Positions 13,660 through 47,206 are shown, numbered from the stretch's first letter. The stretch: 64,000 nt of DNA from Candidatus Latescibacterota bacterium (GCA_965208125.1 OZ242320.1:4320001-4384000); one strand, 5' to 3'. Numbers and translations are program-made. The notes: generated from the sequence alone by a model not told the origin.

Positions 13660-13747
13660 ACTTAACGTTCTCGGCACCCACGAACCTGGCATAGCCAGGT
13701 TGAGCGAAAGCCCGAATGGTTTGAGGCTGTGGGTGCGAGTGTTAGCG
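13660..13747 (-). repeat. attC-like hairpin (intact)
   Basis: ACTTAAC GTT CTCGGCACCCAC...GTGGGTGCGAG T GTTAGCG, with internal AACCTGGC/GCCAGGTT hairpin. Confidence 0.85.
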
Positions 13748-13793
13748 GAAATCGCCTTTGATCCACAGTCTGTTCAACACTTGGGACCTGCCC

Positions 13794-14684
13794 TCACCGC
13801 ACCTGCCCCATAGGCCATTCCGAGGTCGGCCTACCTTGCCACGTTGATCGCCTGAAGAATCGCCCGCCTGGGGGGCGGCTAAACCAGCTACTAATTGCGA
13901 TTCCCCAAAAGTGCTCAAAGGATCTGTCTTTTAGATTCGCGTCACAGTATGCGTAGTGCGACAGGACCTCGTCGAGGAATGGCTCTCCGTATATCCAGAA
14001 CCCATAGAAATCCTTAGCGGGATCTGTGATTTCGACGTCTCCCCAGTCTATGATCCCAGTAAGTCTTCCGGTCAAGGGGTCATGATAGATATGTTTGTAC
14101 CAGAGGTCGTTGTGAGCCAGCACAGACTCGTATGAATGATCGATGCTTTCACTTCTTTCGATCCATGCTTCGAAAACATTGCGGACCTCACATTGAAGCT
14201 CGTCAGCCCGTTCAACGAATAACGCCTTCCACATCCTGCGACGCCTAACCGATGTGTCGCCCTCTTCTACGCCGAGGCTCCGTGCCTTCGCGACCGGGTA
14301 GCTGTGGAGTTCGCTGATGAAAACACCCAGCCTCTGAGCGGCCTCACTGCGGTTCGCCTTGGAAAGTCTCCAAAACCGCCACGGCGAGAGTCGAGTCCCC
14401 GAAATTGTGTGGTATCCCGCAAAATCTGACGCCTTCGGCACGAATGCATAGTCGGGAATGGGTATTGCCTTCAGGTTGCTTCTAAGGGCATCCAGGACGA
14501 TCCGCTCCCTCGTCAGATTTGTATCCACATCGTTCTCGAACCGGAAAGCGATGCCATTGTCCAACAGAATCATTACATGATCGGGATCGGCAATGGTCTG
14601 AACTCTTCGGTAATTTGCCCACATGAGATCTGGAAAGGCGTTTCTGATTCTCTCCAGGTAGTAGCTGGAAGCCAATGGGGGCAT
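13794..14684 (-). CDS. Aminoglycoside phosphotransferase-like protein, copy 1
   Basis: HNDLWYKHI and IIDWGD; near-identical to 33136-34026. Confidence 0.85.
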   Translation of the reverse strand: MPPLASSYYLERIRNAFPDLMWANYRRVQTIADPDHVMILLDNGIAFRFENDVDTNLTRERIVLDALRSNLKAIPIPDYAFVPKASDFAGYHTISGTRLSPWRFWRLSKANRSEAAQRLGVFISELHSYPVAKARSLGVEEGDTSVRRRRMWKALFVERADELQCEVRNVFEAWIERSESIDHSYESVLAHNDLWYKHIYHDPLTGRLTGIIDWGDVEITDPAKDFYGFWIYGEPFLDEVLSHYAYCDANLKDRSFEHFWGIAISSWFSRPPGGRFFRRSTWQGRPTSEWPMGQVR

Positions 14685-14702
14685 AGGGACCTGCGAAAAA
14701 AT

Positions 14703-14733
14703 AACATAGAGGGGAAACCTACACCCCTCTATG
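14703..14733. terminator. Putative intrinsic terminator
   Basis: AACATAGAGGGG...CCCCTCTATGTT perfect stem. Confidence 0.6.
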
Positions 14734-14790
14734 TTTCTGTTTTAATTTCTGGACGTCACTGTTCTCAGACGTTGTCCTTCAAGGAACGAG

Positions 14791-15100
14791 TTACCCATCT
14801 CTATCCAGGTGCGGTCGCACCTCTCGCTCCAGGCGGTCCGATAGCTCGTCCTCCGCTACATCCAGGGCATAGTCCATCTTGAATGCCCATCCAGAATTTG
14901 GGTGACATGTTGAAGTAGCGAGCGAGTCTCAGGGCTGTATCAGCAGTAATGCCTCGTTTTCCCAACACAATCTCGTTTATACGTCGGGGCGCCACCCCGA
15001 TGGAAAGCGCGAGGTGGTTTTGACTCAGATTCATCGGCTTGAGGAACTCTTCCAGCAACACTTCCCCGGGATGAATAGAAGCCAATTTCTGAGCACACAC
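14791..15100 (-). pseudogene. higA: HigA family antitoxin, frameshifted; no adjacent toxin
   Basis: [12 protein letters not shown]...[13 protein letters not shown]; removing one A near 14880 restores [20 protein letters not shown]. Confidence 0.8.
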
Positions 15101-15126
15101 AGGTCTGTCTCCTTAGAATCGTTTGC

Positions 15127-15603
15127 TCACTCCTCATCGAGTAAGGCCAGATGAAAGCCATGCCAGTCGTCGAGATCGTTGAGGTCGGTCCCGAGCCACT
15201 CTTTGTCAGACTGAGGCAACCCAAGAATCTCAAGCATTTCGCTTCGACCAGGCTCTGGCTTGGGGAACGAGAGGATGCGTTCGTTGAATTGGTCAATCGC
15301 CTCCTGCGTCAGGCTTTCCGGTTTCGCATTTTCCTTCACCCAGGTCTCGAACGTCAGATAGCCCGGCTGCGACGCGCTTACGAACGCGACAGCGGCGGTC
15401 GAATCAATTCCCAGAGCTTCGAGCAGCAGACCATCGAACCCGCCTTCGCCCGCTCTGTATTCATCTGCCAACTTGCCCTTTGCCGACAGACGCATTTTCA
15501 GCCATAGCCTCGGAAGGTGAACTAATCCCAACGGGCCCTTCGTCCGGGTGCTGATGAGTGGAATATATGTCTTCATCTCGATAATCTCCTCATTAGTGAT
15601 CAT
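15127..15603 (-). CDS. DUF5069-like protein
   Basis: GLVHLPRLWLK and DLDDW motifs. Confidence 0.7.
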   Translation of the reverse strand: MITNEEIIEMKTYIPLISTRTKGPLGLVHLPRLWLKMRLSAKGKLADEYRAGEGGFDGLLLEALGIDSTAAVAFVSASQPGYLTFETWVKENAKPESLTQEAIDQFNERILSFPKPEPGRSEMLEILGLPQSDKEWLGTDLNDLDDWHGFHLALLDEE

Positions 15604-15630
15604 TGTGGCCGACAGCCTTTTTGCACAAAA

Positions 15631-16944
15631 TCAGGCATCAAAATAACTGAGTCGATCGCCTTCAGCTTCCCAGAGTTCTTCAAACATTTTTCGGATGTCG
15701 GGTAAAGATACGACGGATGCAGTAAGTGGGTCCAATGCACAAGCATGGAATGCCGCCTCTTTATCTTTTTCCATTGCAGCTTTGACGGAGAGTTCTTGTA
15801 CGGCGATGTTGGTCATGTTTAATGCGGCGCACTGAGGAGGAAGTTTACCAACGTAACAGGGATGAATGCCTTCTCTATCGACCATGCAGGGTACTTCAAC
15901 ACAGCATTCGTCGGGAAGATTGGTGATAGATCCGTTGTTCATGACGTTGCCGTTGAAGACAAATGGGACACCTGTGATTTTTGCTTCTATGATTGAAGAA
16001 GCGTATTCGTGGGATGCTTGCAGTTTTGGGACTTCGGCTTCGGTATCGTCGTCTGTGATGCCTGTGTCTTTCATCCAGGAACGTTTGCGGCTTTCGGGCA
16101 ATTCCATATAGACGGGATCGCGTTCTGGCAGGTTGTAGATGTCCCGCAATTCCTGAGTGCGCTGGAAGTAGGGGAGGTATTCTGAATTGTGTCGGGTGCT
16201 TTCGGTGACAAAATAGCCAAATTGCTTCATCATCTCGACCCGCACCAGGTCGTCTTTGAAGCTGGGATGGGTGTCAACGGCTTTGAAGATGCGAGGGTAC
16301 AGGTCTTCGCCGTCTTTGTTGAATTTTAGAATCCAGGCCTGGTGGTTAATCCCTGCAACGAGGTAACTCACATCTTCGTAGGGAACGTCAATGCCATTTG
16401 CCAGTTTTTTTGTTGTGCCCTGTACGCTGTGGCAGAGGCCGACGTTTTGGATGGATGAACCGATAGAATGCATCCAGGTGAGCATGGCCATGGGGTTGGT
16501 ATAATTTAACATGAGTGCATCGGGGCAGTGTTTTTCCATGCTTTTGCAAAATGATAGGTGCTCGTGTGCGGTGCGAAGATAACGGAACACACCTCCTACG
16601 CCTACTGTGTCGGCGACAGTTTGGTTAATGCCGTACTTTTTGGGGATGTTGATTTCAGATGCGTAAGGTTCGCCCCAGTAGGCTGCGCCTCCAATGGATA
16701 CGGCAGTGACGACAAAATCTGCGCCGGGCAATAATTCTTCGCGATCCGTGCTGGCGATGCATTTGCCAGGGAGTCCATGGCCATCAATGGCGCGGTTCAC
16801 GTAATCGTGCACCTGAGTCAATCGCTCTTCGTTGATATCACAGAGTGCGATTGTGGAATCGTTTAATAATTCACGAGATAAAATATCGATGGACAATCGG
16901 CTTCCGAATCCACTGCCAGCACCAATGATTACAATTTTTGCCAT
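15631..16944 (-). CDS. Family 4 glycoside hydrolase (alpha-galactosidase MelA-like)
   Basis: IIGAGS, NYTNPM, GLCHSVQ and AGINH motifs. Confidence 0.92.
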   Translation of the reverse strand: MAKIVIIGAGSGFGSRLSIDILSRELLNDSTIALCDINEERLTQVHDYVNRAIDGHGLPGKCIASTDREELLPGADFVVTAVSIGGAAYWGEPYASEINIPKKYGINQTVADTVGVGGVFRYLRTAHEHLSFCKSMEKHCPDALMLNYTNPMAMLTWMHSIGSSIQNVGLCHSVQGTTKKLANGIDVPYEDVSYLVAGINHQAWILKFNKDGEDLYPRIFKAVDTHPSFKDDLVRVEMMKQFGYFVTESTRHNSEYLPYFQRTQELRDIYNLPERDPVYMELPESRKRSWMKDTGITDDDTEAEVPKLQASHEYASSIIEAKITGVPFVFNGNVMNNGSITNLPDECCVEVPCMVDREGIHPCYVGKLPPQCAALNMTNIAVQELSVKAAMEKDKEAAFHACALDPLTASVVSLPDIRKMFEELWEAEGDRLSYFDA

Positions 16945-16989
16945 TAAAACCTCCAGTATTAAAAAGTAATGAACTCAGCGAGTGAGGAA

Positions 16990-17850
16990 TCAGAAAAACA
17001 CCGGCGCCCGGAACACATCCTCGAATTCACCGCGGTCCTTCGCCCGCTGATACTCCCACTCGTAGGGCGATTCCCTAAGCCTGCTGGGCCCGTTCCTTAC
17101 ATCGTGCCCGATGTCGCTTTGCCTGGGGTAATGGCTGTAGATCATGAGCCTCCGCGGACGACCGGAAACATTCGGCCTGGAGTTGTGGACCAGCACCGAA
17201 TGGAAGAGCATGACGGAGCCGGGCGGCGCCAACAGGTCGATTCCCCCATCGAAATCGATCAAATCCGGTAGCACTTCCCACCCCCTTTTGTTGGGCGGTC
17301 GGTGATGTTCCAGGTGCTGTTTGTGACTCCCCGGCCAGACGTGAAGCGGTCCGGACGATTCGTCGTATGGATCCATGGTCACGGCCGAAGAGATGATCTC
17401 TTGCGGGTAATCCTGCGCCAGATAATACGCCCAATCGTTGTGAACCGGAAACCGGTCTTCGCGATCGACCAATGGGATGCCCTCTATCGCTTCGGGCAGC
17501 GGTTCTTTGTAGTTCAGCTTCTCCTCCATGAGAATCGGCTCGTCACCCATGAGTTGACGCATGGGTCCGATGAGTCGTTCGTCGGCAGACACTCCGGCCA
17601 GGAACAGCGACAGGTCGTTAATGGGCTGGATCTTGCGCACCATCGGCCCGGTAGATGTCTGTAGAATATCGAGTCGCCCGCTTTTTCGCCCGTTGGCCAG
17701 GGAAGAGTTGATGATGAGCTCGAGTATCCGGTCCGCTTCATGTTGCATGCGAGCGACTTCCTCGGCGTTGAATGCCTGTGGGAGCACCAGGTAACCGTTC
17801 TCGCGAAAGTGCTCCAGGTCTTCGCCTGTGAGTTCTGTTTTTACCGCCAT
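16990..17850 (-). CDS. Phytanoyl-CoA dioxygenase (PhyH) family protein
   Basis: HND...H Fe(II) triad, PGSH, HNSRPN...RR. Confidence 0.88.
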   Translation of the reverse strand: MAVKTELTGEDLEHFRENGYLVLPQAFNAEEVARMQHEADRILELIINSSLANGRKSGRLDILQTSTGPMVRKIQPINDLSLFLAGVSADERLIGPMRQLMGDEPILMEEKLNYKEPLPEAIEGIPLVDREDRFPVHNDWAYYLAQDYPQEIISSAVTMDPYDESSGPLHVWPGSHKQHLEHHRPPNKRGWEVLPDLIDFDGGIDLLAPPGSVMLFHSVLVHNSRPNVSGRPRRLMIYSHYPRQSDIGHDVRNGPSRLRESPYEWEYQRAKDRGEFEDVFRAPVFF

Positions 17851-17946
17851 TCCTTCCTCCTATTGAGGTGCTTGATGATGGCCATTTCAAGTTCCGGGGT
17901 GAATGATTTCTCAGGCTTCATTCTCGCTCTCCTTCCAAAGCATCTT

Positions 17947-19371
17947 TTATCTCCGCAAACATGACGGATCTACTTCCACAGAATTTGCTGTGTGTTTGTC
18001 CAGTTGATCAGACAATTGGTGGACAACATCTGCATATTTTGGATCTCGTGCTATATTTGTGAATTCTTCTGGATCAGCGTACACATCTGCGAGGAAGATG
18101 TCTTCATCTTCAGGTTTCGGTTTTTCGCCATTGAGCAACACATTTTTATCAAGGCGATACTGGCTCGTGCGTATGCAGCTTCGCCGTGGCCAACCGCGAT
18201 CACCATACCAGTCGCCACGGCCACCGTTGGGGGCCATTTTGCTGAATGGCTGGCCATATCCGATTGTAGAGTAGATACAGTCGGGGGGTGGATCAGTGAA
18301 AAGATCGCGGCCTTTGAATTGCGAAGGTGTCTCGATGTTGGCAAAAGAAAAGAGTATTCGTGCAATGTCCAGACTGTCGCAGATGTCATCCCGCACTTGC
18401 TCTGCAGGTATGGTGCCTGGCCAGGAGATTAGAAGTGGCACGCGATGCACTGTGGGTGTGTAAGTCAGTTTTTCGAAGGCGCCTGTCTCGCCAAGTGGAT
18501 TGCCGTGGTCCGCACCAAATACGATGAGGGTTTGTTCCTGGCGACCAGTTTCCTCAAGAAAATCTAAGACCCGTCCGACTTGAGCGTCAATCCAGGCGAC
18601 CTGTGCGTAGTAGTGAAGGCGTCCTGCACGGAGTTTTTCGGGATCCATTCTGGCCACACCAAAAACTTCGGCAACGCGTTTTTCAAATGCAGAGAGAGTG
18701 TCAGGCAGCGGATCGGGCAGGCCGGGATCTTGATCGTCGAGAAGCTTTACATATTGTGCTGGCGGTAATACCGGTGTGTGTGGCTGAAGAAGGGAAATGC
18801 GCACGAGATAAGGGGAGGTTGCTGTTTGGAGCCAGTGTAAGGCATTTTCAACGACTGAGTCGGGAGGATAGGGTTCACCGTTTGGGAAAATACCGCCGTT
18901 CATGCCGCCGTAGGGCGAGCGGATCATCTGTACAGCGTCTTCGCCAAGATGTTCCCAGATTTTCATTTCGCCACCCGTTCCGTCGTGGTATTGGAAAATT
19001 TCATGCTCTGGATTAGCACCTGGACGTATTTCGGGGGCAACATGGATCTTTCCAAAATTGGCAGTTGAATAGCCGTTCTGTGAAAATACGTTAGGGAAAG
19101 TTTGCTGGATGCGGGGCAACCGGAAATTTGGCCAGGCACCTTCGTTGTTGTACACGCCTGTGTCTTCGGGATATAGACCAGTTAGCGTGCAATATCTGGA
19201 GGCAACACAAACAGGCGCATTGCAAAAGTTATTTGTGAATCGCACACCGCTGCTCGCCAAACGGTCGAGATTTGGCGTGCGCAACTGCAATCTGGGATGC
19301 CCATAGCAGTCCAGCGCATCGGTGCGCAGTTCGTCACAGTAAATCCAGATAATATCAGGTTCTTCAGGCAT
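17947..19371 (-). CDS. Sulfatase
   Basis: PDIIWIYCDELR, CVASR (CxAxR variant), GKIH and DHG motifs. Confidence 0.9.
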   Translation of the reverse strand: MPEEPDIIWIYCDELRTDALDCYGHPRLQLRTPNLDRLASSGVRFTNNFCNAPVCVASRYCTLTGLYPEDTGVYNNEGAWPNFRLPRIQQTFPNVFSQNGYSTANFGKIHVAPEIRPGANPEHEIFQYHDGTGGEMKIWEHLGEDAVQMIRSPYGGMNGGIFPNGEPYPPDSVVENALHWLQTATSPYLVRISLLQPHTPVLPPAQYVKLLDDQDPGLPDPLPDTLSAFEKRVAEVFGVARMDPEKLRAGRLHYYAQVAWIDAQVGRVLDFLEETGRQEQTLIVFGADHGNPLGETGAFEKLTYTPTVHRVPLLISWPGTIPAEQVRDDICDSLDIARILFSFANIETPSQFKGRDLFTDPPPDCIYSTIGYGQPFSKMAPNGGRGDWYGDRGWPRRSCIRTSQYRLDKNVLLNGEKPKPEDEDIFLADVYADPEEFTNIARDPKYADVVHQLSDQLDKHTANSVEVDPSCLRR

Positions 19372-19494
19372 AAAAAGTGTGGCCTTTGTTTTTTAGATGT
19401 CTTTTTCGGGGACAACTGCGCCGTGTAGCACGAACCTTTAGTTCGGAAAATATGTGGGATGCTTGATGGATTGGCAATCTCTTTATGTTATCGC

Positions 19495-21090
19495 CTATGC
19501 AATGTCTTCTGGGGCAATGAATACGCCTACGATGTGGCTTTTGTTAGGTTCGTCGCCATAATTGGTGTAATCGACCAGGATGATGCGGCCATCGGGTAAG
19601 GTGAGCCAGGATGAGTATCCGTGATCAGGACGGGGTTCTTGATCAGGATGGTTGGCATGGATTTGAACGAAGCGGTCGCGCTGATATTGATCGGGGTATT
19701 CACCGGAGGAGGCAGACCAGTTCCACGACCAGTCATCGAAGGTTCGATTTTGCGATGAAAAGTTGACGGATGTCCAGGTGCTACTGCCTGTGTCACTCCA
19801 TTGGCCAAACATGGTGCGCATATCGGGGCGGGATGAGGTATGGTCTGAGATGTGTGTTTCTCCGCGGAAGACGTTTCGGTAAATTATATCTTCACCATCA
19901 ACCTGTATGCGCAAGAGGCCGCCCTTGTGGCGATAAGCGACTTTTCGTGGTTGTGAAAAGTCGATTTTTTTATGCAAATCGGTGCGTTCGAGCCTACCGA
20001 GAGAAATGAAGTCGGAGCCGATGTAGAGGATATCGCCAATGCTGCCACAAGACATAAAGGCAATGGGTTCTCCCGGTGGGCCTTCGACTTGTACTTCAGC
20101 TTCGAAGTCGACGGTACTGAAGCGATCCTGTGGCGGGAGGAGGCTATAACGGCATTCGTGCTCGGGTTTGTGATGGATGGTGAGACCATTTTCATTGCGT
20201 GTTGCACTGTATTTTCTGCGGGGCCCACCGATGGCATATGTCCCCGCTTCTTTTTTGAGGTCGCCAATCCAGGCATAACAGCCAAGACCGCCGTTGACGT
20301 GGCGACCTGTGACCATGCAGCGGCCATCTTCGAGTTGTCTGACATACGGACGATGGAGGGCAAAAGGACATATCTGAGGGGCACTCCAGGTGCGCCCATT
20401 GTCCTGAGAGAAAGCTACAAAATTGGGCACACCTCCAGAGCGGTTTTCGCGCATGACACAGGCGATTTCTTTGCCGCCGTCGAGGATGACAATTGCGCCT
20501 TCGCAAAATCGGTTATAACCATCGTGGGCAACAGTGACCTCATTGCCCCAGGTTTTGCCACCGTCAGATGAAAAGGTTACGATTTCAGCAAATTCTTGAG
20601 CTTCGCGAAACATGATATGGCTACCGACGGCAAGACGTCCGTCGGGCAGTTCCATGATGCGATCGGGTTCAAAGCCTCTGATGTTGGGTTTGTAAGGCCC
20701 GTCCCAGGATTTGCCCTCATCTGTGCTCCACCAGAGCCAGTTGCCGGAGGGCTGGTCTTCGTGAAAATGGCTGAAGTCGTCGTGGTCGCAGATGACAACA
20801 ATGCGATCATCACTTAAGAGGCTGATGCGCGGTGTTACGAGACGCTCATCGCCTTTGCTGCGATCAGCAGTTGCGAATTCGCTCAGTTTGTCCCAGGTTT
20901 GACCATCGTTTTCGCTGTAGAGGATGGTGAGGATTTGGGTGGTTTCACCCCAGTGGGCTTCGGTATCGGAATAAACGAGCAGAAGGCGACCGGATTTGAG
21001 GCGAATGATGTCGGGATTTTTGGTAAAGCGGCCAGGACTGCGCCAGGCGTCAAAGACTTTGTCGTTGATAGAGCGTGGATGGATATACAT
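19495..21090 (-). CDS. BNR-repeat sialidase-like protein
   Basis: Asp-boxes SENDGQTW, STDEGKSW, SSDGGKTW and SQDNGRTW. Confidence 0.85.
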   Translation of the reverse strand: MYIHPRSINDKVFDAWRSPGRFTKNPDIIRLKSGRLLLVYSDTEAHWGETTQILTILYSENDGQTWDKLSEFATADRSKGDERLVTPRISLLSDDRIVVICDHDDFSHFHEDQPSGNWLWWSTDEGKSWDGPYKPNIRGFEPDRIMELPDGRLAVGSHIMFREAQEFAEIVTFSSDGGKTWGNEVTVAHDGYNRFCEGAIVILDGGKEIACVMRENRSGGVPNFVAFSQDNGRTWSAPQICPFALHRPYVRQLEDGRCMVTGRHVNGGLGCYAWIGDLKKEAGTYAIGGPRRKYSATRNENGLTIHHKPEHECRYSLLPPQDRFSTVDFEAEVQVEGPPGEPIAFMSCGSIGDILYIGSDFISLGRLERTDLHKKIDFSQPRKVAYRHKGGLLRIQVDGEDIIYRNVFRGETHISDHTSSRPDMRTMFGQWSDTGSSTWTSVNFSSQNRTFDDWSWNWSASSGEYPDQYQRDRFVQIHANHPDQEPRPDHGYSSWLTLPDGRIILVDYTNYGDEPNKSHIVGVFIAPEDIA

Positions 21091-26764: not shown

Positions 26765-26782
26765 CTCGCCTATTCCTATGTC

Positions 26783-26845
26783 ACATAACGTTTCAGTACT
26801 CCCGAACCACGAAGCGGTTGGGGGACGGCGAGCATCGGGTTGGCT
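26783..26845 (-). repeat. attC-like site, degenerate
   Basis: ACATAACGTTTCAG...AACCACGAAGCGGTT...GTTGGCT; shares the inner hairpin of 47123-47206. Confidence 0.6.
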
Positions 26846-26857
26846 GATTCTCGCCTT

Positions 26858-27835
26858 TCAATCTATGCCTTCGATTGCAGCCTCGCCCATACGAATCGCC
26901 GCATCCGGGAGAGCGAGTATTCGGTCTTCCAATCCCCAGGTTCTCCGATTAGGCGACTTCGGCCCCCATTTCCGGTGGAGCTGGCAGAGGCGCTTGGCAT
27001 AGTAGGCCGCGAAGATGAAGGGGAGTGCGGTACGTTCATCATCTGAGGGAGGCCGGACTGAAAAGTACCCCTCCACGAACCGCTGCATTTCCTCATCTGT
27101 AAGCTGTCGCCCCACGGTCCCCATCAGCCATTGCATCCGGACCATCACTACATCCTCAAGCGCCGGAGCGAAGTGAGCCGAATTGAAGTCGGTGAATCGG
27201 ACCTCACCTGACGGGGAAGCAATCGTGTTCCAACTTCGCACATCTCTACGACAGAAGAGCCAACGAACGTCCATCTTGTTCGGCGTGTTATTCAACTGTG
27301 CTCGAAGCCGAGTGACCGCATCTGCCGCGGCCGACGAGAATGTCGTCCTCTCGCAATACTCGAGAGCATCAGAGATGTACCCTTGTGCATCTTTGACTTC
27401 TGAAAGGTAGGCTGGAAAGTCTTCGCTCGCATCGTGAACCCGTGCGAGAGCCTCCCCCACGTTGCGGAGAGTATCGACGCGGTCTACGACCTCTCCTTCC
27501 AAGAAGCTCTCCACCGAAATCACCAGGTCTCGAACGGACTTGTAGAGGCTACCATCCGTGGTTGGACGGATGTCAGGACACGGCGCGCCGCGATCGGCAA
27601 GGTGTCGCACAAACTCCACAATGGTTTTGGGATGGGTCGAGCCGTCCCATCCCGGATTCACGCGGAACACAACGCGTCCGTCCCGCAGACTATCACAAAA
27701 GAAGACGCACCGCGAATTCGCCCTGCGGACGCTGGTTACTTCCAGATCCCAGAATCGCTTGCAGAGATCCATAATTTCTGGCTGATCAGGCAGCGGGCCC
27801 GTTTCGTCTCTATATCTGGGATAGCGTGGTTCCAT
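26858..27835 (-). CDS. Phosphotransferase (APH-like)
   Basis: RRDVRSWN and FTDFN; start placed at MEPRYP. Confidence 0.75.
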   Translation of the reverse strand: MEPRYPRYRDETGPLPDQPEIMDLCKRFWDLEVTSVRRANSRCVFFCDSLRDGRVVFRVNPGWDGSTHPKTIVEFVRHLADRGAPCPDIRPTTDGSLYKSVRDLVISVESFLEGEVVDRVDTLRNVGEALARVHDASEDFPAYLSEVKDAQGYISDALEYCERTTFSSAAADAVTRLRAQLNNTPNKMDVRWLFCRRDVRSWNTIASPSGEVRFTDFNSAHFAPALEDVVMVRMQWLMGTVGRQLTDEEMQRFVEGYFSVRPPSDDERTALPFIFAAYYAKRLCQLHRKWGPKSPNRRTWGLEDRILALPDAAIRMGEAAIEGID

Positions 27836-27875
27836 TGGTTTTCTCGGCCCAGGACTGGCCGTAGCGGCGCGAGGA

Positions 27876-28472
27876 TTATAGGTGGTGCATAGCCCCAACA
27901 GCATCGAGTCGATATTGGTTGCCATCGTATGCAATCGTCGTAACGGAGCATTCACGCATTACTTCACCACTGTATGGGTCATTGCAGAATTCCGGACTGA
28001 TGCGACTCAGTTCTTCAGACGAAAAAACATTGAGAAGGAAGTCTGCTAAGACACCACCATGGGTCACCCCAATCACAGTATCTTTGGATGACTGAAGATA
28101 GCAATCAGAAACAAATGCCTCAATACGTCTGCCAGCCTCAATGCTTGAATCGCCGACACTGGATTGGTAATCTCGTTCTGTGTTACAACGCTCCCACTGA
28201 GTTATGAATTCATCGAAAGATTGGCCTTCGATGTCCCCCCAATTCATTCGTTCACGTAGCCGTGAATCTTCAGTAACTTCAAGATTCAAAATGGTGGCGA
28301 TGATCTCTGCTGTCTCTCTTGTTCGTGCCAGGGGACTGCTGAAGATTCGCGCGATGCCATTTGATGCTAACTTCCGGGCGAGTAGTCCTACCTCTTCTCG
28401 TCCCTTTGATGTCAATGAAGGATCGCCGATCTTGCGGTCTCTCTTACCATGGCGAATAAAGTGAAAACGCAT
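27876..28472 (-). CDS. Histidine phosphatase family protein
   Basis: RHG, SSPLARTRETA and VTHGG motifs. Confidence 0.92.
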   Translation of the reverse strand: MRFHFIRHGKRDRKIGDPSLTSKGREEVGLLARKLASNGIARIFSSPLARTRETAEIIATILNLEVTEDSRLRERMNWGDIEGQSFDEFITQWERCNTERDYQSSVGDSSIEAGRRIEAFVSDCYLQSSKDTVIGVTHGGVLADFLLNVFSSEELSRISPEFCNDPYSGEVMRECSVTTIAYDGNQYRLDAVGAMHHL

Positions 28473-31062: not shown

Positions 31063-31109
31063 GTGTCTGCCCTCAAAGAAGTGATTTCGGTTATTGGCAA
31101 TTTCAGTTC

Positions 31110-33135: not shown

Positions 33136-34026
33136 TCAACGCACCTGCCCCATAGGCCATTCCGAGGTCGGCCTACCTTGCCACGTTGATCGCCTGAAGA
33201 ATCGCCCGCCTGGGGGGCGGCTAAACCAGCTACTAATTGCGATTCCCCAAAAGTGCTCAAAGGACCTGTCTTTTAGATTTGCGTCACAGTATGCGTAGTG
33301 CGACAAGACCTCGTCGAGGAATGACTCTCCGTATATCCAGAACCCATAGAAATCCTTAGCGGGATCTGTGATTTCGACGTCTCCCCAGTCTATGATCCCA
33401 GTAAGTCTTCCGGTCAAGGGGTCATGATAGATGTGTTTGTACCAGAGGTCGTTGTGAGCCAGCACAGACTCGTATGAATGATCGATGCTTTCACTTCTTT
33501 CGATCCATGCTTCGAAAACATTGCGGACCTCACATTGAAGCTCGTCAGCCCGTTCAACGAATAACGCCTTCCACATCCTGCGACGCCTAACCGATGTGTC
33601 GCCCTCTTCTACGCCGAGGCTCCGTGCCTTCGCGACCGGGTAGCTGTGGAGTTCGCTGATGAAAACACCCAGCCTCTGAGCGGCCTCACTGCGGTTCGCC
33701 TTGGAAAGTCTCCAAAACCGCCACGGCGAGAGTCGAGTCCCCGAAATTGTGTGGTATCCCGCAAAATCTGACGCCTTCGGCACGAATGCATAGTCGGGAA
33801 TGGGTATTGCCTTCAGGTTGCTTCTAAGGGCATCCAGGACGGTCCGCTCCCTCGTCAGATTTGTATCCACATCGTTCTCGAACCGGAAAGCGATGCCATT
33901 GTCCAACAGAATCATTACATGATCGGGATCGGCAATGGTCTGAACTCTTCGGTAATTTGCCCACATGAGATCTGGAAAGGCGTTTCTGATTCTCTCCAGG
34001 TAGTAGCTGGAAGCCAATGGGGGCAT
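33136..34026 (-). CDS. Aminoglycoside phosphotransferase-like protein, copy 2
   Basis: 33121-34036 near-identical to 13779-14694. Confidence 0.85.
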   Translation of the reverse strand: MPPLASSYYLERIRNAFPDLMWANYRRVQTIADPDHVMILLDNGIAFRFENDVDTNLTRERTVLDALRSNLKAIPIPDYAFVPKASDFAGYHTISGTRLSPWRFWRLSKANRSEAAQRLGVFISELHSYPVAKARSLGVEEGDTSVRRRRMWKALFVERADELQCEVRNVFEAWIERSESIDHSYESVLAHNDLWYKHIYHDPLTGRLTGIIDWGDVEITDPAKDFYGFWIYGESFLDEVLSHYAYCDANLKDRSFEHFWGIAISSWFSRPPGGRFFRRSTWQGRPTSEWPMGQVR

Positions 34027-34062
34027 GGGGACCTGCCAAAGAGGATTAATTGTCGCGATTTC

Positions 34063-34117
34063 CGCTAACTGTTGGGTGAAGCCCGAATGGCCGAAGCCGT
34101 GTACAGTCGTGTTATGC
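34063..34117 (-). repeat. attC-like site, internally deleted
   Basis: CGCTAAC...AAGCCCGAATGG...CGTGTTATGC. Confidence 0.65.
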
Positions 34118-34196
34118 GGTGTGCTCACTTCATTACGGCAGGAGAAACTCTGTGGAAAGGTTCCGCAAGCCTGGAGTTAGTGACCGTGCTCCCTCC

Positions 34197-40674: not shown

Positions 40675-40692
40675 AGTTAATACTCAAATAAG

Positions 40693-40823
40693 ATAGCCCC
40701 AACAGCATCGAGTCGATATTGGTTGCCATCGTATGCAATCGTCGTAACGGAGCATTCACGCATTACTTCACCACTGTATGGGTCATTGCAGAATTCCGGA
40801 CTGATGCGACTCAGTTCTTCAGA
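40693..40823 (-). repeat. Identical 131-bp copy of 27889-28019 (histidine phosphatase 3' region)
   Basis: Direct sequence match. Confidence 0.95.
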
Positions 40824-40856
40824 TTCGCCCCCGACTGAACACAACTCGGTGGAAAA

Positions 40857-41576
40857 TCATGACTTACTCGATTTGTCCCTCTGCGCCAACATCTGTTGTC
40901 TAACTTTTCTCTTTAAGTTCTTCTTTCTCTCCCGCTCTTCCTTTTTTTTCTGCCGTTCCTCTCTTTTTGTTTTGCGATGCTGTTGGCTTTTTTTAACCTT
41001 CTGAATCCATTCTACTCTATTGGCTAAGATTTCAGGGCTACTCTTTTCGCCATATGAAAGCTTGTTTAGAAAATCTATAATTTCATGCTGTCTTCCTCCA
41101 ATTAAATCTGTGGCTCCAGGCCGAGTCAGTCCTCCCTCAAGTTCCCAATGATACCTATGAATCAAGGTGTCTATGAGGACCATCTTCTCTTTTGGAGATC
41201 TCGCAGTCTGGTATTTTTGGAGGAACTCTTGGAGAAAGACCGTGAGACCAGAGGCAGCAAGATGCTTACCTTGTTTGGCTTTATGATACTCGCCCCAGGT
41301 GAGTTCCCAGTTGCACGATTCGCATCTCAGAATCGTATCCTTCATACCGTCGTGGTCTATCTGGCGATCACATAATGGACATCTTGCTCGTCCAGTACTG
41401 GCTTCTCGTGCTTTGAAAATGCTTTCGATACGAGCGAAGAGTCCAATCCCCACGTCTTCAATAAGCTCTTCGTCTACTATGCCCTGTGCATCAGTTGCAT
41501 AAAGGCGGGCTATTTTTTCTCTTGGAACTCGACTTGCCCAAGTTGGCCTGTCGTGTCTTGGTTTCGGGTTGCTCAT
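40857..41576 (-). CDS. Hypothetical protein with CxxC/CxxC zinc ribbon
   Basis: CPLC...CESC and a basic C-terminal tail. Confidence 0.7.
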   Translation of the reverse strand: MSNPKPRHDRPTWASRVPREKIARLYATDAQGIVDEELIEDVGIGLFARIESIFKAREASTGRARCPLCDRQIDHDGMKDTILRCESCNWELTWGEYHKAKQGKHLAASGLTVFLQEFLQKYQTARSPKEKMVLIDTLIHRYHWELEGGLTRPGATDLIGGRQHEIIDFLNKLSYGEKSSPEILANRVEWIQKVKKSQQHRKTKREERQKKKEERERKKNLKRKVRQQMLAQRDKSSKS

Positions 41577-41717
41577 GTATTCCTTAGAGATTTTTCAGGT
41601 TGGTCGATTTGGTGAAAACTCGAAGAATCAGAAAAGTTCGAGAATATGATGGGGAGTGGGTTCTGTTTTTGTTTTTGCACGCTAAAGGGTTTTTCTGGGT
41701 GGTGTTGGGGCGATTGC

Positions 41718-41857
41718 CCATAACGTCTCGCCGGTTGCCGATGTGGCCGTGATCAGTTAAACAAATCGCTGCTTTTACAATCAGGAAACACAAAGCTTCA
41801 CGAGCCATTTGGGTCGGAGCAACCGCAGGGAGCGGAGCCTGCAACTTGATGTTAACT
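41718..41857 (-). repeat. attC-like hairpin (long, ~140 bp)
   Basis: CCATAAC GTCTCGCCG GTTGC...GCAAC TTGAT GTTAACT. Confidence 0.75.
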
Positions 41858-41906
41858 GCTGTGGCGGTGCCGGGCTGCATTTGCCAGGACAGCAAATGCG
41901 GCTTCG

Positions 41907-44210
41907 TCAGGAACATCCGAGGTGTTCATCAAACCAAGCGACAATGCGGTTCCAGTAGTCCACTTGATTGGAGTATTCCCACTCACTTGGGGCATGTCTT
42001 TCGCCTTCGTACTTTGCATACACCACCTCTTTTCCAAGACGACGAAGGCCAACAAATATCTCATCGGCCAGAAACGAAGGTACCGCATAATCGACAGCTC
42101 CGTGGATAATAAAAAGTGGCGTTTGTACCCTATCGAGGTAGAATACGGGTGAATTCTCGATATACCGATCCCGAAATTGCCAGGGGGTGCCGCCCATTCT
42201 ACCTTGGCCTTCCTCTGCCCACGGGAGTCCATAAGTTGATCCATCTTTTCTCATTGCCCCATACGCGCCCAGTAAATTACCTTGCGCTGCACTGGCAACG
42301 GCTGCCTTAAAGAGTGTTGACTGAACAATCAACCCCAGTACGCAATATCCGCCATAGCTGTGACCCATTATCCCAAGACGATCAGGATCGGCAATCCCCA
42401 TCTCAACTGCTTTGTTTACACCCGGAAGCACGGTCTTGGCAAGGTCTTGCATCGGGGTTCCCACTTGAAGGGGCGCATCAGGAGAGAGAACTGCGTATCC
42501 TCGTGTGGCGAGCAGCTGTAGGTTATCAACTCCAGAGCCTTCTAGGCCGAACGTATTTAGGTTGTTCGACCCCCACCTGCCACCATACACGCGAACTACA
42601 AGTGGATACCGTCTTCCTGATTCATAGTTGGGCGGAAGCAACAACGCACCCCGTAGCCTCTGGCCATCGGCACTTCTCCATTCGATGAGACGACTCGCTC
42701 CCATGCTAGTCGCGTCAAGCAACGGATTAAGGCAAGTTAATCGTCTTGGATTCTGGAAATCAACGTCTGAGATCCAGATATCCTCGCTATGCTGAGCACC
42801 CTGTTTTATGTAAGCCACACGCTGCTCATCGTCAGAAATATCGATGGTATAGATGGTAGGGCGACCGCAATCCGCATCCTCTTCAAAAAGTCGTGTTAAC
42901 TGTCCCGTAGTCAGGTCAACTTTGTAGAATCCAATGTGTCTGGTTTCATCATCCCGTGTAATCAGAAACAGTGATTGACCTCCATCTGGCGACCAGAAGC
43001 GTCCCCCTTCCGCAGGAGAAACCACTTCCATTATTTCTCCACCTGAAATACGTGTAATATGCGTCGCCGTTGCATCAGGTACAGAGATGCGCCATAAAGC
43101 ATCAGAAACGAGGCAATAGAGGTTTTGTCCCTTGGAGTCCCATAAGGGAGCACGATAAACATGGTAAAAATTGGGATGTGGTTCCTTAGTCAAGTTTCGT
43201 GGCTCACCTCCGCTGGCAGACACAACGAAACAATCTCCGTCTGATATATAACTGAGTAGCTGCCCATCGGGAGACCAGCTGACGGAAATTGCGCGCTTTT
43301 GTTGAATATCTGTTGCAAAGACTTGAGAGCGAGTATCAGACAGAGAGACAACGATGAGTTTATTCTCCAAGATTGTAAATGCAATGTTCATACCATCTGG
43401 AGATATCCAGTAGCCGAGGACTTTCATTCGGTGTACGATACGTTGCACCTCTCCATTGGAAACATCGATCAAGGCAAGATCAGAAAGGTAAATATTCGTG
43501 ACCTCAATTTCTTGCATGTTGTCCTGCTGTTGTCCCACGTCATCTCCCTGCTTTGTGGCTTCGGGTGAGCGGTAGACAGCGACTGAGGGCTGATCTGCTT
43601 CTTTTTGATCATCCTTCGGCAATGGAGGACCCATAAAAAGACTGCAAGCTTCTTCAAGCGTCATCCTCTGCGGCAGGATTTTGCAGAGAATTTTCTGACT
43701 ATCCGGTGTCCAACGGACAATTTCGGAACCGTAATAAGGACGTACAATAGCGTCAGATACTTGCCTCAATGTATCGGATGACTTTTCCCACACCCAAAGC
43801 TGTGCTTGGCCATTCTGATCTGAATAAAAGGCAAGATAGTTTCCATTGGGGGACCATACCGGGCCCCAGCCATTACCTTTGCCTTCTGTCAAGCACCTTG
43901 ACTCACCAGATATAGAATTGGTGACCCAGACCTCACAACCAATCCTCAATCTTGGCATGCCTGAGCGACTAAAAAAGCTATATCTTTCATCGCCTGTTTT
44001 CTCCTTTTTTCGAGGGTTTTGGACTGTGTAGGCAACCCACTCGCCATCTGGAGAAAGGTCGATAGGTGTTTGTGGAGAAAAAGAGAGCGACGAAAGTACA
44101 TCTTCAGTTTCTATGTGCATCCATTTCTCCTTACAATAACTGATAGCCTCCACAACAGAGGTTTCTCTTTTGAGGAGGCGCCTTCCTGGCGCCTCCTGGT
44201 TTTCCGGCAC
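41907..44210 (-). CDS. S9 family peptidase (beta-propeller plus catalytic domain)
   Basis: WSPDG repeats, GHSYGG, HGAVD and EGERH motifs. Confidence 0.92.
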   Translation of the reverse strand: MPENQEAPGRRLLKRETSVVEAISYCKEKWMHIETEDVLSSLSFSPQTPIDLSPDGEWVAYTVQNPRKKEKTGDERYSFFSRSGMPRLRIGCEVWVTNSISGESRCLTEGKGNGWGPVWSPNGNYLAFYSDQNGQAQLWVWEKSSDTLRQVSDAIVRPYYGSEIVRWTPDSQKILCKILPQRMTLEEACSLFMGPPLPKDDQKEADQPSVAVYRSPEATKQGDDVGQQQDNMQEIEVTNIYLSDLALIDVSNGEVQRIVHRMKVLGYWISPDGMNIAFTILENKLIVVSLSDTRSQVFATDIQQKRAISVSWSPDGQLLSYISDGDCFVVSASGGEPRNLTKEPHPNFYHVYRAPLWDSKGQNLYCLVSDALWRISVPDATATHITRISGGEIMEVVSPAEGGRFWSPDGGQSLFLITRDDETRHIGFYKVDLTTGQLTRLFEEDADCGRPTIYTIDISDDEQRVAYIKQGAQHSEDIWISDVDFQNPRRLTCLNPLLDATSMGASRLIEWRSADGQRLRGALLLPPNYESGRRYPLVVRVYGGRWGSNNLNTFGLEGSGVDNLQLLATRGYAVLSPDAPLQVGTPMQDLAKTVLPGVNKAVEMGIADPDRLGIMGHSYGGYCVLGLIVQSTLFKAAVASAAQGNLLGAYGAMRKDGSTYGLPWAEEGQGRMGGTPWQFRDRYIENSPVFYLDRVQTPLFIIHGAVDYAVPSFLADEIFVGLRRLGKEVVYAKYEGERHAPSEWEYSNQVDYWNRIVAWFDEHLGCS

Positions 44211-44219
44211 CGTTATTGC

Positions 44220-44310
44220 AGTTAACGTTTCGCCGGTTTGCGAACCCGCGCAGCGGGTTGCCGAAGGCCAAGGCGCGAACTGCGCCGCAGCGCAAACCGT
44301 GCTGTTAGAG
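44220..44310 (-). repeat. attC-like hairpin (intact)
   Basis: AGTTAAC GTTTCGC CGGTTTGCG...CGCAAACCG TGCT GTTAGAG. Confidence 0.9.
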
Positions 44311-44351
44311 GACGTTGTGCCTTCCCTGACACCCGACTGACACCGAGATGC

Positions 44352-45173
44352 TCAGGGAATGAAGCACTCATCTCTCCCCCTATGGACAAAGATCGAGTTC
44401 TCGCCATGCTCGCCGAGTTGAAATATGCACTCGAATCCGTAGGATTGCAGCTCCGCTACAAGCCTCTTCCGATCCCGATAACACCTCTTGGGAATGTAGG
44501 CCTTGCCGTTAACGAGGAGCGTGTCACTGCAGGCTTCTACCTGCTCCAGCGCGGAAGGCGCCTTTTCCAGCGGCTCGTAGTAGTAGTCCGTTGACGGATC
44601 GTAAAGGCAATCGCCGTCATAGATATCATAAGTTTGGCCGGTGGAGCGATCCACGATTTTCCTATCTGGGCTATGTCGTCTGGACTCATAAAGCGAAGAA
44701 CTTACGAGGTAGTAGCCCTTGGGCTTCAGCCTAGCCTTGACGCTCTCGAAGACTGATTTGCGCTCTTCGGAGAAGACGATGTGGTTGATGCAGTAACTAT
44801 CAATTATCAAGTCAAACCGGCGCCCACTGTGTGGAATCGCCGTCACATCCACCACCTCATAAGTAATAGCCAAGCCTCGGACGGAAGCTATCTCCTTGGC
44901 CGTCCGGATCGCCTCCGGTATCACGTCATAACCCGTGACTTGGTAGCCCCGTTCTGCAAGAAACAGGGCGACCGGCCCCACGCCCGTCCCAAGTTCGAGC
45001 ACTACTGGATTCGGCGTCTTGAACCGGAGCTTTGGCAAGGCCATATCGAGGAATTCCCGAGACGAGAAATCGTGGAAATCGATGCCACCATACGTCTGCG
45101 TTGCCCAATCTTTCAGACCCATCTGGGTCATGGTCTCGTAACGCCGGGCATTTTCACGGAAATAGTATCTCAT
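44352..45173 (-). CDS. Class I SAM-dependent methyltransferase
   Basis: LELGTGVG and FDLIID motifs. Confidence 0.88.
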   Translation of the reverse strand: MRYYFRENARRYETMTQMGLKDWATQTYGGIDFHDFSSREFLDMALPKLRFKTPNPVVLELGTGVGPVALFLAERGYQVTGYDVIPEAIRTAKEIASVRGLAITYEVVDVTAIPHSGRRFDLIIDSYCINHIVFSEERKSVFESVKARLKPKGYYLVSSSLYESRRHSPDRKIVDRSTGQTYDIYDGDCLYDPSTDYYYEPLEKAPSALEQVEACSDTLLVNGKAYIPKRCYRDRKRLVAELQSYGFECIFQLGEHGENSIFVHRGRDECFIP

Positions 45174-45188
45174 TCACAATGTCCTCTA

Positions 45189-46125
45189 GGTAGTGTCTGA
45201 AAAGTCGTAAAGTATGTATTTTAGTTGCAGCATACGCCCAAGACAAAGGAGTATGATATGCAACGGAGATACGAACTGAGCGACGACGAATGGCATCTGA
45301 TCCAAGACTTGTTTCCACCGCCGAAGAAGATGGGTCGTCCCCGTCGAGATGATCGTACATTATTCAACGGGGTCTTCTGGATATTGTGTTCAGGTGCAGC
45401 TTGGCGCGACCTACCAGAACGATATGGTCCTTGGCAGACAGCCTTTGATCGATTCTGCAAATGGAAACAGGATGGCACTTTTGATCGCATTGTAGAAAAA
45501 TTGCATCTCAAATTGGATGAAGATGGCCTTTTAGATTATGCGACCTGGATGATGGATGCAACCCATATTCGAGCCACACAAGCCGCAGCAGGGGCGAAAA
45601 AAAAAGGGTAAAGAGGGTGAAGAAGAGCCCCCAGACCACGCTTTAGGACGCTCTCGTGGCGGTTTGACCACGAAAATCCATCTTCTTTGCGATGCAGTCG
45701 GGCATCCTTTAGCAGTGGACCTGCTCCCTGGCAACCAGTCAGAATCCACACAGGCTGAAAGGCTGTTATCAAAGGTACGCATACCCACCAAACAAGGACG
45801 TCCAAGAAACCGACCTCAGTATCTGGTGGCTGATAAATCTTATGATGTCTCACGCATCAGAGTCTATCTACGCAAACGGGGTATCAAGGCTGCTATCCCA
45901 AACAAGGCGATTCCTAAAGGCAGAAAACGGCGTAAGAGAGGACCAAGGCCAAAGTGTGATAAAAGATTATATGCCAAACGCAATATCGTAGAGCGTCTCT
46001 TTGGTTGGCTCAAACACTGCCGACGGATTGTGACTCGGTTTGAAAAAAAGGCGACTCATTTTCTCACTATGGTCAAGCTGGCCTGCATCAGACAACTCTT
46101 CAAAGCTTACTTTTCAGACACTACC
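45189..46125 (+). mobile_element. IS5 family insertion sequence (IS427/IS1031-like)
   Basis: Perfect 17-bp terminal IR GGTAGTGTCTGAAAAGT, TA duplication, two-ORF transposase. Confidence 0.95.
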
Positions 46126-46128
46126 TAA
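45258..46128 (+). CDS. IS5 transposase (OrfA + OrfB, -1 frameshift at the A9 run near 45600)
   Basis: WRDLPERYGPW, GRSRGGLTTKIH, ADKSYD and RNIVERLF motifs. Confidence 0.9.
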
Positions 46129-46220
46129 CGTTTCGCCGGTTTGCGAACCCCGAGCTTGTCGAGGGGTTGCCGAAGGCCAAGGCGCGACCAGCGCCGCAGC
46201 GCAACACCGTGCTGTTAGAC
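46126..46220 (-). repeat. attC-like hairpin whose R' core is split by the IS5
   Basis: Near-identical to 44220-44310; removing the IS restores GTCCTCTAAC. Confidence 0.9.
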
Positions 46221-47105
46221 GACGTGCCCTGCCATTCTCTCGAGTGAGTTCCGGGCTATCCGTTCTATCTCCTCCCCTGGTAACAAAGCAATGTCTTCGA
46301 AATCCACCACCTTTTCTAATGAGCGGATTACTTCCCGTCCAAGGAAGTGGCCACATCCACTGCGCCCCTTTATGCTGAACCAAGAGCCGAAGAATGAATT
46401 CACTGGCTGATCCCCATCTACCAGTTTCAGAAATTCGGTAGCAAGCCAGGCTTTGTTTGACGTGCACCAGGCGAGCCAATTCTCCTCGCCATATTGTTCA
46501 TGCCATGAATCGTCACCAAATACAATTTGCTCGCTACGGACCGCAAATCCCTCGCGATAAAGCTGCCAAAAAGGCCCCTTACCAGACGGTAAACCGCTTC
46601 GTTTGCGGCGCTGTATGTGGAGAAGATGGCCCAACTCGTGGGCAGTGAGGCCGGTCAGCGCCTTCTCTGTAGTGTAGCCACATTCAGCAATGTTCTCTAA
46701 TCCGAAGAGGCAAGCAGACCTCCCTCCAAGGCTAGTGGCCCATCCCGCGCCGCAACCAATTCCCACATAGATCATGAAGAGAACGTCAAAATCCAGATCA
46801 AGAGACTCCTGTGCCCTGCGGTATACTTTATCTATACAGGTTAACAATACAGCTCTCGCCTTTCCCATGGACGGCAACCGCTCCTGCAGATATGGGAAAA
46901 CTTTATCTTTTCCAATCGCGCGCCACCCCCCTTCCTGGCCAATGTAATCCTTTTGCTGTTTTTCGAGCAGTTCGGGCCACTGTGACATGTATTCAGTGGC
47001 CCAAAGCTCCAACTGCGTCTCAAGCGGTTTCACATGGACGGCCTCCCAAAAGGAGAGGAAAGCAGGAAACGTATCAACGATCTCGCACTGTGCCATCTTT
47101 AACAT
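46215..47105 (-). CDS. Putative zinc-dependent protease (HExxH)
   Basis: AHELGHLLH...EG; stop codon overlaps GTCTAAC. Confidence 0.65.
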   Translation of the reverse strand: MLKMAQCEIVDTFPAFLSFWEAVHVKPLETQLELWATEYMSQWPELLEKQQKDYIGQEGGWRAIGKDKVFPYLQERLPSMGKARAVLLTCIDKVYRRAQESLDLDFDVLFMIYVGIGCGAGWATSLGGRSACLFGLENIAECGYTTEKALTGLTAHELGHLLHIQRRKRSGLPSGKGPFWQLYREGFAVRSEQIVFGDDSWHEQYGEENWLAWCTSNKAWLATEFLKLVDGDQPVNSFFGSWFSIKGRSGCGHFLGREVIRSLEKVVDFEDIALLPGEEIERIARNSLERMAGHVV

Positions 47106-47122
47106 CTTGACCTCGGCATGTC

Positions 47123-47206
47123 GTCTAACGTTTTCGCCGTGTCCGAACCGCGAAGCGGTTGCGCGAAGGCGCCTCAGCGCCGAAGCCGGGCACGGACGTG
47201 TTACGC
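47123..47206 (-). repeat. attC-like hairpin (intact)
   Basis: GTCTAAC GTTTTCG CCGTGTCCG...CGGGCACGG ACGT GTTACGC. Confidence 0.9.

Follow-up and report, generated by a model that had tools for sequence, protein, structure and literature searches.

Integrons of the described type, such as the class 1 integron with IntI1 or VchIntIA with the VCR (PDB 2a3v), consist of a recombinase, an attI site and an array of promoterless cassettes, each of which ends in a folded imperfect palindrome, the attC site. Crossover takes place in the AAC/GTT core of the R boxes (RYYYAAC/GTTRRRY), and it is the bottom strand, the complement of the coding strand, that folds better. In the structural account of Nivina et al. 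(2016, PMC5027507) the bottom strands fold 2.12 kcal/mol better on average, the central spacer usually holds 5-6 bases per arm, and the extrahelical bases, G16 and T23/24, stand close to L'' in the bottom strand. Where Escudero et al. (2016, PMC4792948) treat the origin of these marks, the extrahelical bases are recognised by the I2 domain of the integrase and are described as having co-evolved with it, the question which of the two arose first being left as a chicken-and-egg problem. The I2 domain is treated as defining and indispensable in integron integrases, and in IntegronFinder it tells integrons apart from CALINs, clusters of two or more attC sites, as called by its model, with no integron integrase nearby.

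Here we describe a locus of Candidatus Latescibacterota bacterium in which five hairpins (sites A to E) lie alongside minus-strand genes and near the gene of an IntI-like tyrosine recombinase without the I2 insertion. All coordinates refer to the window, i.e. the whole stretch of 64,000 nt that was analysed (GCA_965208125.1 OZ242320.1:4320001-4384000). The IspH protein of the host shares 93% identity with one assigned by name to Latescibacterota. The hairpins are integron-type attC sites and represent a distinct structural variant. The locus shares with canonical integrons the components, the R boxes, the crossover core and the better folding bottom strand named above, and with chromosomal integrons a branched and variable terminal structure. 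It differs in that the integrase lacks the I2 insertion of about 41 residues, in that the main unpaired mark of the site is a 4-nt bulge on the R' arm instead of an extrahelical G and T, 6 bp apart on the R'' arm as depicted in PMC5027507, and in that the site sequence is strongly conserved over the whole class. Full-text literature searches, which mostly gave an abstract-level view, returned no paper on integron-type arrays run by I2-less integrases or on integrons of Latescibacterota.

Five hairpins with a long R' arm

The five sites and the recombinase gene are given below; R1 denotes a covariance model built from sites A, C, D and E, and 'net' the difference in unpaired nucleotides between the 5' and the 3' arm.

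13660..13747, minus strand: attC site A, right after an APH-family kinase gene; R1 85.8 bits; net +3
41718..41857, minus strand: attC site B, decayed, subtype of ~140 nt, ends the S9-peptidase cassette; fold z about 0; aligns with the first attC of genome G005
44220..44310, minus strand: attC site C, ends the methyltransferase cassette; R1 90.2 bits; loops (4,0), (0,1); net +3
46123..46220, minus strand: attC site D, ends cassette 2; R1 87.3 bits; loops (4,0), (0,1), (0,1); net +2
47123..47206, minus strand: attC site E, ends cassette 1; R1 86.5 bits; loops (4,0), then (0,1); net +3
48012..48842, minus strand: IntI-like tyrosine recombinase without I2 insertion, with an in-frame internal deletion and an altered C-terminus

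All five sites named in the original prediction were located, D starting at 46123 and not at 46126; their description as intact holds except for B, which is decayed. Read on the plus strand, each starts with TAACGT and ends with GTTA, and the genes alongside lie on the minus strand, which is thus the cassette (coding or top) strand, the plus strand being the bottom strand that folds. On the minus strand all five show the order TAAC, 4 nt, stem, stem, 7 nt, GTT, and the R'-arm endings quoted in the prediction (CGAAAACGTT, GCGAAACGTT, CGAGAACGTT and GCGAGACGTT) were all found there. Site D, for instance, has the R boxes GTCTAAC and GTTAGGT. Constrained DNA folds of the plus strand with the AAC/GTT pairs enforced gave the same anatomy for C, D and E. 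The R-box helix gives way to a bulge of 4 nt on the 5' arm; two base pairs later a single nucleotide bulges from the 3' arm, and a 9-bp stem then leads to a branched top. The fold of site A carries a 2-nt and a 1-nt bulge, both on the 5' arm. The net difference between the arms was +3 in A, C and E and +2 in D.

When both strands were folded as DNA without constraints, as had been suggested, the plus strand was lower in energy at every site:

Site A: plus strand -21.6 kcal/mol, minus strand -19.8 kcal/mol
Site B: plus strand -19.0 kcal/mol, minus strand -17.6 kcal/mol
Site C: plus strand -26.9 kcal/mol, minus strand -25.9 kcal/mol
Site D: plus strand -22.8 kcal/mol, minus strand -19.7 kcal/mol
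Site E: plus strand -23.1 kcal/mol, minus strand -21.2 kcal/mol

Comparison with shuffled sequences revealed a clear excess of stability at A and C only. Site B was no stabler than its shuffles (z 0.0 and -0.33) and was not recovered by R1 at E<=10; its ~140-nt subtype is also present in a genome of the same genus. An Rfam scan of the window gave no match, and strong R1 matches in the whole 5.75-Mb genome are limited to A, C, D and E. Sites A to E are homologous and do not represent five independent observations; the evidence beyond chance comes from the covariation over 150 related sites.

Comparison with canonical attC sites

Class 1 cassette sites from plasmid records were folded with the same script as controls. 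A generic search for AAC...GTT palindromes with a helix of 7 bp gave too much noise to show arrays beside canonical IntI genes, and constrained folding ranked by energy was used instead, a procedure of moderate sensitivity that gave a site in 8 of 16 class 1 intervals. The net difference was -1 in five of the eight controls, -2 in one and +1 in two; of the latter, one ended at a multiloop after a 6/5 spacer and the other owed its value to a loop 32 bp into the stem. In aadA2, qacL and other controls the spacer is 6/5 and the 3' arm bears single bulges at a distance of 6 bp from each other, located at 4 bp and 10 bp or at 6 bp and 12 bp, and the mean strand difference of the controls amounted to -2.27 kcal/mol.

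The spacer of the window sites is 7/4 versus 6/5 in canonical sites, i.e. it has the same polarity in exaggerated form and the same sum of 11. Instead of 5-6 nt on each arm there are 7 and 4 nt, which on folding become a bulge of 4 nt and one of 1 nt with two base pairs between them. The two or three extrahelical R''/L'' bases of canonical sites, the first and last of them separated by a 6-bp stem, are not the pattern of the related sites described below (n=111). The original prediction had called the arm asymmetry of the hairpins reversed, and this is true of the net arm length alone: the net asymmetry is opposite in sign to the canonical one (+3 versus -1), a property kept (+2 to +4) in 102 of 111 related sites. 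A mirror image of the canonical site they are not; spacer polarity, R boxes and the G|TT crossover position are all canonical.

A conserved and covarying family of sites

The search of genomes with a new covariance model, proposed together with the prediction, yielded R1 matches in 57 of 101 related Latescibacterota genomes, with same-strand arrays of up to about 40 sites. From 16 array regions comprising 311 kb we obtained 155 matches, on a single strand in each region, of which 150 were aligned; their spacing of one gene leaves little room for many overlooked canonical sites. For the geometry the 150 aligned sites were reduced to 129 analysable ones (21 lacked AAC/GTT at the expected ends) and these to 111 whose main stem has 8 bp or more. 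Within the latter set the net asymmetry was +3 in 69 sites, +4 in 24, +2 in 9 and another value in 9. In 87 sites the first loop had the form (4,0). One nucleotide bulges from the 3' arm at the third pair, 3 bp away from the R box, in 57 sites, and 7 have a further bulge at bp 7-8. In two respects this census does not support the prediction as worded. A single bulged base (column 201 of the alignment) is still found on the R''/L'' arm in 118 of 150 sites (about 79%), and the bottom strand, on which the model is built, is still the stabler one; this is true of 124 of 129 sites, with a mean difference of 3.68 kcal/mol.

The stems are maintained by compensatory changes. Paired cells made up 92.7% versus 70.2% in shuffled alignments and 33-46% with the partners slid, double changes numbered 791 versus 241, and both sides had changed in 23 of 27 pairs including the two pairs between the bulges, figures that are somewhat favoured by an alignment fitted to the covariance model. 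TAAC and GTTA are each conserved at 96-99%, and R-box cells are paired at 96.7%. Sequence conservation is unusually strong also beyond the R boxes: the 5' end reads C-nnn-TAACGTTYY and the 3' end T-GTTA-nnn-G, and the first inner hairpin has CGAACC...GGTTG.

The first inner hairpin opens with a conserved GAACC/GGTTG helix (columns 29-34 and 111-119 of alignment A3; 44241-44259 in site C), which forms a second AAC/GTT duplex of the same polarity as the R box. This helix is a candidate for a second recombinase binding site that could replace the canonical L box.

Beyond the phylum, one locus of Spirochaetota and one of Gemmatimonadaceae show the co-directional layout of the window and AACGTTT sites of net +2. 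The matches listed in this search for related loci were all of <=49% identity, and L085 is not independent of G057:C1. A nhmmer search with the site alignment overlooked weak sites that the covariance model found (e.g. in L173), and distances were taken from the latter where the two differed.

Cassettes and an attI-like junction

Neighbouring sites are separated by a median of 906 bp. Of 125 cassettes, 96 have their longest open reading frame on the strand opposite to the model and 10 on the model strand itself, 19 being ambiguous; the model thus describes what is usually called the bottom strand. Complementarity between the hexanucleotide that precedes TAAC in one site and the one that follows GTTA in the next averaged 4.90 of 6 positions (n=94), compared with 2.69 for the two flanks of the same site and 2.59 for random pairs. 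Such complementarity is the signature of circular cassettes inserted by core crossover.

In the window the recombinase gene is followed by an attI-like site:

47966..48000, minus strand: attI-like site, ATTACCGTAACTGTTCGTTAATCCCGTA followed by the junction GTTACGC; conserved in genomes G005, G045 and G031 up to GTTA, with divergence beyond it

A conserved attI-like sequence that stops exactly at GTTA stands beside the I2-less gene in four genomes of one clade and in four of another, and the genomes diverge past this GTTA in both array layouts. In G005, 9 of 10 positions in the flank of the junction are complementary to the first attC. The R'' box of site E (GCGTAAC) complements the attI junction GTTACGC, the flanks of D and E match at 12 of 13 positions and the R'' side of B complements the R' side of C. 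The pairs so connected in the window are the attI-like junction with E, E with D, C with B, and A with a remnant at 34057 described below.

The recombinase is related to IntI and has no I2 insertion

The best profile for the window recombinase was that of integron integrases, TIGR02249, with 196.9 bits against a cut-off of 265, matched in two stretches that leave positions 174-235 unmatched; the nearest solved relative by sequence is VchIntIA (2a3v). The block that corresponds to the I2 region comprises 90 residues in the window protein and 89-92 in 17 array-associated or related I2-less proteins, 130-131 in six IntI proteins (four of the same phylum) and 95 in the two Xer proteins of the host. 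The genome has one copy of this recombinase family besides the two Xer genes, and no IntI over the cut-off was found anywhere in its 5.75 Mb.

Residues 1-16 and 17-240 of the window protein match residues 1-16 and 146-369 of its relative P0001 with 92% identity, residues 17-145 of P0001 being absent; full-length relatives have about 370 residues. The loss of 129 internal codons means that the window array is most likely inactive now. Going by its sequence, the recombinase is probably dead and the array a frozen relic.

For a structural model of P0001 (mean pLDDT 76.7) the best fold match was again 2a3v (E 1.8e-15), followed by XerA. A quick tree placed the six IntI proteins in a single clade (support 100); the I2-less proteins surrounded it as an unresolved grade, separate from the Xer proteins of the host. 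The family resembles XerC, XerD and XerA in the length of the catalytic domain without I2 insertion, and the NCBIfam model of XerA gave 191 bits, which is under its cut-off; unlike Xer it groups with IntI in the quick tree and adjoins cassette arrays, not a dif site. The fold search also aligned full-length lambda integrase to P0001 over 382 columns. Residues 12-67 of P0001, absent from the window copy, form an N-terminal beta-beta-alpha-beta-beta-alpha domain with an IPGRRW...KCW motif and without a Pfam match, which to judge from the model may be an arm-type DNA-binding domain.

The window platform has the order recombinase, attI-like site, cassettes, all on one strand. Treponema provides an example of an 'inverted' integron. 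The window and 15 related places resemble the 'inverted' integrons mentioned in PMC4889954 in that the recombinase is transcribed toward the cassettes; those integrons were, by the profile named there, found with intI_Cterm and thus have the IntI-specific region, which is absent here.

Which enzyme goes with which site

IntI genes over the curated cut-off are present in 10 of the 101 genomes, only three of which are among the 57 site-bearing ones; the remaining 54 site-bearing genomes have none. Around eight canonical IntI genes there was no R1 match at E<=0.1, in agreement with the earlier proposal that this site type goes with I2-less IntI-like recombinases. The IntI gene of genome G074 is adjoined by two sites of 61-62 nt with a 6/5 spacer, 3'-arm bulges 6 bp apart and net differences of -1 and -3, and that of G054 by one site of net -2. 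G074 also has a 37-site array of the R1 type that is headed by an I2-less gene fragment. Relatives of P0001 occur in 28 of 101 genomes. An R1 site lies within 5 kb in 23 of 32 assessed non-IS91 recombinase places (a tally across searches, with seven further places left out); the array is located downstream on the opposite strand, which is the co-directional layout of the window, in 15 places and upstream and divergent in 4.

A subfamily of I2-less recombinases of 314 residues, with six copies in G042 (L055:2042-4100 and five further ones) and three in G052 (L161, L184 and L185), is followed by an IS91-like transposase, a protein of 394 residues with an IS91-type zinc-binding N-terminus. IS91-family elements can carry an upstream tyrosine-recombinase orf (ISfinder descriptions), and these multi-copy pairs resemble them; the subfamily represents a transposon gene and not an integron platform. 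The clade of the window differs from it in being followed by attI and cassettes, and no transposase match was found within 600 bp of the window recombinase or of its clade. Five of the six copies in G042 lie within about 3 kb of an attC site of the R1 type. The conserved site start AACGTTC contains GTTC, a target of IS91, so that IS91-linked elements may home to attC sites. At least twice, in L161:15571-17713 (G052:C1) and in L184, a canonical IntI gene is followed directly by an IS91-linked I2-less recombinase on the same strand.

Proposed mechanism and alternative explanations

We regard it as probable, with moderate confidence, that an integrase without I2 belongs to an integron-like system at this locus and that the asymmetric mark of its sites is the R'-arm bulge, which takes the place of the extrahelical bases of canonical sites. 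This explanation joins what is observed, namely the anatomy, conservation and covariation of the sites, the cassette boundaries and the association with I2-less recombinases, to a presumed course of events. The five hairpins are the attC-type sites of a partly decayed cassette array in a Latescibacterota chromosome, and recombination would be catalysed by the array's integrase, presumably the IntI relative without I2 insertion. As in integrons, the cassettes entered through crossover within the conserved TAAC/GTTA core, and the DNA would react in single-stranded form. The main asymmetry of the folded bottom strand is a conserved bulge of four pyrimidines (TTYY) that adjoins the R box on the R' arm; two covarying base pairs and then usually one bulged base on the R'' arm follow. 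We assume that this bulge and the higher stability of the bottom strand mark strand and orientation for an enzyme that is blind to the canonical extrahelical bases, so that the rule of strand selection would differ from the canonical one, as the original prediction had it.

The most serious alternative, which we consider unlikely, is that the arrays are ordinary CALINs, built by a canonical IntI that was lost or acted in trans; the I2-less genes would then be unrelated genes of mobile elements and the 7/4 spacer a flavour of the lineage tolerated by IntI, which, in the account of PMC5027507, recognises structure more than sequence. Canonical IntI is indeed present in the class (10 of 101 genomes), recombinases like those of the IS91-linked subfamily can be transposon passengers that end up beside arrays, and the CALIN concept of Cury et al. 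(2016, PMC4889954) covers several features of the locus, such as the decayed array, the lack of an IntI in reach by the curated model and the many arrays of relatives without recombinase. The same work, in its treatment of attC-adjacent integrases without the IntI region, judged these not to be IntI, and its set of 21 such integrases without intI_Cterm may already include the present family. Further points weigh against an I2-less integron. The family is missing at E<=1e-30 from 37 of the 57 site-bearing genomes, so that arrays evidently persist without it, as CALINs do, and 9 of the 32 assessed recombinase places are without a site within 5 kb. Five of the nine IS91-linked copies are still within about 3 kb of R1 sites, for which reason proximity alone is weak evidence. 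The eight IntI loci offered at least 5 kb on the cassette side in five cases and less than 2.5 kb in three, and canonical sites were found beside the enzyme at only two of them. R1 was built on the window's own sites and favours their geometry, and the tree is a quick version with open forks. What speaks against ordinary CALINs is the distribution of enzymes and sites: an IntI over the cut-off is absent from 54 of the 57 genomes with sites, none of the eight IntI loci has the R1 site type, and in G074 canonical attC sites adjoin IntI whereas the arrays of the R1 type lie elsewhere and adjoin an I2-less gene fragment. Many of the arrays, unlike CALINs, begin with a specific IntI-like recombinase that has an attI-like junction of its own, and in two clades the conserved attI-like sequences end at GTTA directly beside the I2-less genes.

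It is also conceivable, if rather improbable, that the I2-less recombinase acts like Xer on double-stranded sites, hairpin and asymmetry being by-products of an imperfect palindrome without a role in strand selection. The family does lack the domain that adapts IntI to folded DNA, IntI itself keeps an ancestral activity on double strands according to the relevant part of PMC4792948, the core AACGTT is palindromic and the attI-like sites hold near-perfect short palindromes. Against this stand compensatory changes that keep the stems while the sequence drifts, i.e. selection on pairing within a strand, as well as the conserved positions of the bulges and a strand difference that averages 3.68 kcal/mol and has one direction in 124 of 129 sites. 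That the hairpins are a chance product or a repeat artefact, e.g. an element like the repetitive extragenic palindromes unrelated to cassettes, might be suggested by the presence of only four strong copies in 5.75 Mb and by a site B no better than shuffles; this notion is refuted by the complementarity rule of the cassette flanks, the covariation and the one-gene spacing with consistent gene orientation, and in view also of the attI junction and of hundreds of copies in the arrays of relatives we give it next to no weight.

Remnants and genes of the old array

The old array extends over roughly 13.7-48.0 kb and is heavily eroded. Its remaining features are as follows:

13794..14684, minus strand: APH-family phosphotransferase gene upstream of site A (PF01636)
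26780..26848, minus strand: decayed attC remnant 3' of a second APH-family gene, recognised by sequence; R1 17.5 bits, E 0.017
34057..34125, minus strand: half-deleted attC remnant, upstream boundary partner of site A; R1 only 9.3 bits
41907..44210, minus strand: cassette gene, S9 prolyl-oligopeptidase family, 767 residues
44352..45173, minus strand: cassette gene, S-adenosylmethionine-dependent methyltransferase
45178..45197, minus strand: probable collapsed site, attC body absent, two cassettes fused; the flank partners of D and C abut
46215..47105, minus strand: cassette 2 gene, 296 residues; family searches without match
47257..47913, minus strand: cassette 1 gene, DUF402/FomD-like (Pfam PF04167; NF049998 134 bits, under its cut-off)

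The 3' flank of site A has an exact inverted partner (13 of 13 positions; chance expectation about 0.001) at 34057-34069. The remnant at this place retains an R box, the third hairpin, the 3' arm, the 4-nt spacer and GTTATGC. An upstream boundary of site A had been sought near 14.7 kb and none was found there. The pairing of A with 34057 implies a 'cassette' of 20 kb (13747-34069) that contains GH4, sulfatase, BNR, FAD oxidoreductase and MacB/FtsX genes, i.e. functions of sugar and sulfate metabolism; insertion of DNA into an old cassette or fusion of several cassettes is the more likely origin of this interval. At 45178-45197 the partner matches for the flanks of D and C overlap with 2 and 3 mismatches of 13, each of which alone is at chance level. 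The place looks like a clean loss of a whole attC hairpin between R boxes, which would account for the double-size cassette between D and C. A match at 31090 to the 5' box of B (2 mismatches) was at chance level and was dropped as a partner.

Three APH-family phosphotransferase genes are present on the minus strand (13794-14684, 26858-27955 and 33136-34128), two of which have an attC site immediately behind them, A in one case and the decayed 26780-26848 in the other, the third overlapping the remnant at 34057-34125. All are far under the cut-offs of the NCBIfam resistance models and are therefore not called as resistance genes.

Significance for the origin of cassette recombination

A different conserved asymmetry together with I2-less relatives of IntI that have their own attI-like site provides a testable case of cassette recombination without I2. 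The wider reading, which we offer as a tentative one at slightly less than even odds, is that the sites belong to a second, ancient and widespread lineage of integrons, whose integrases never had the I2 insertion or lost it and read folded attC sites via a 4-nt pyrimidine bulge on the R' arm. If this is true, many 'orphan' arrays in poorly studied phyla would have to be reclassified as complete systems, and the lineage would represent either an ancestral intermediate or an independent solution in the origin of single-stranded attC recombination and strand selection.

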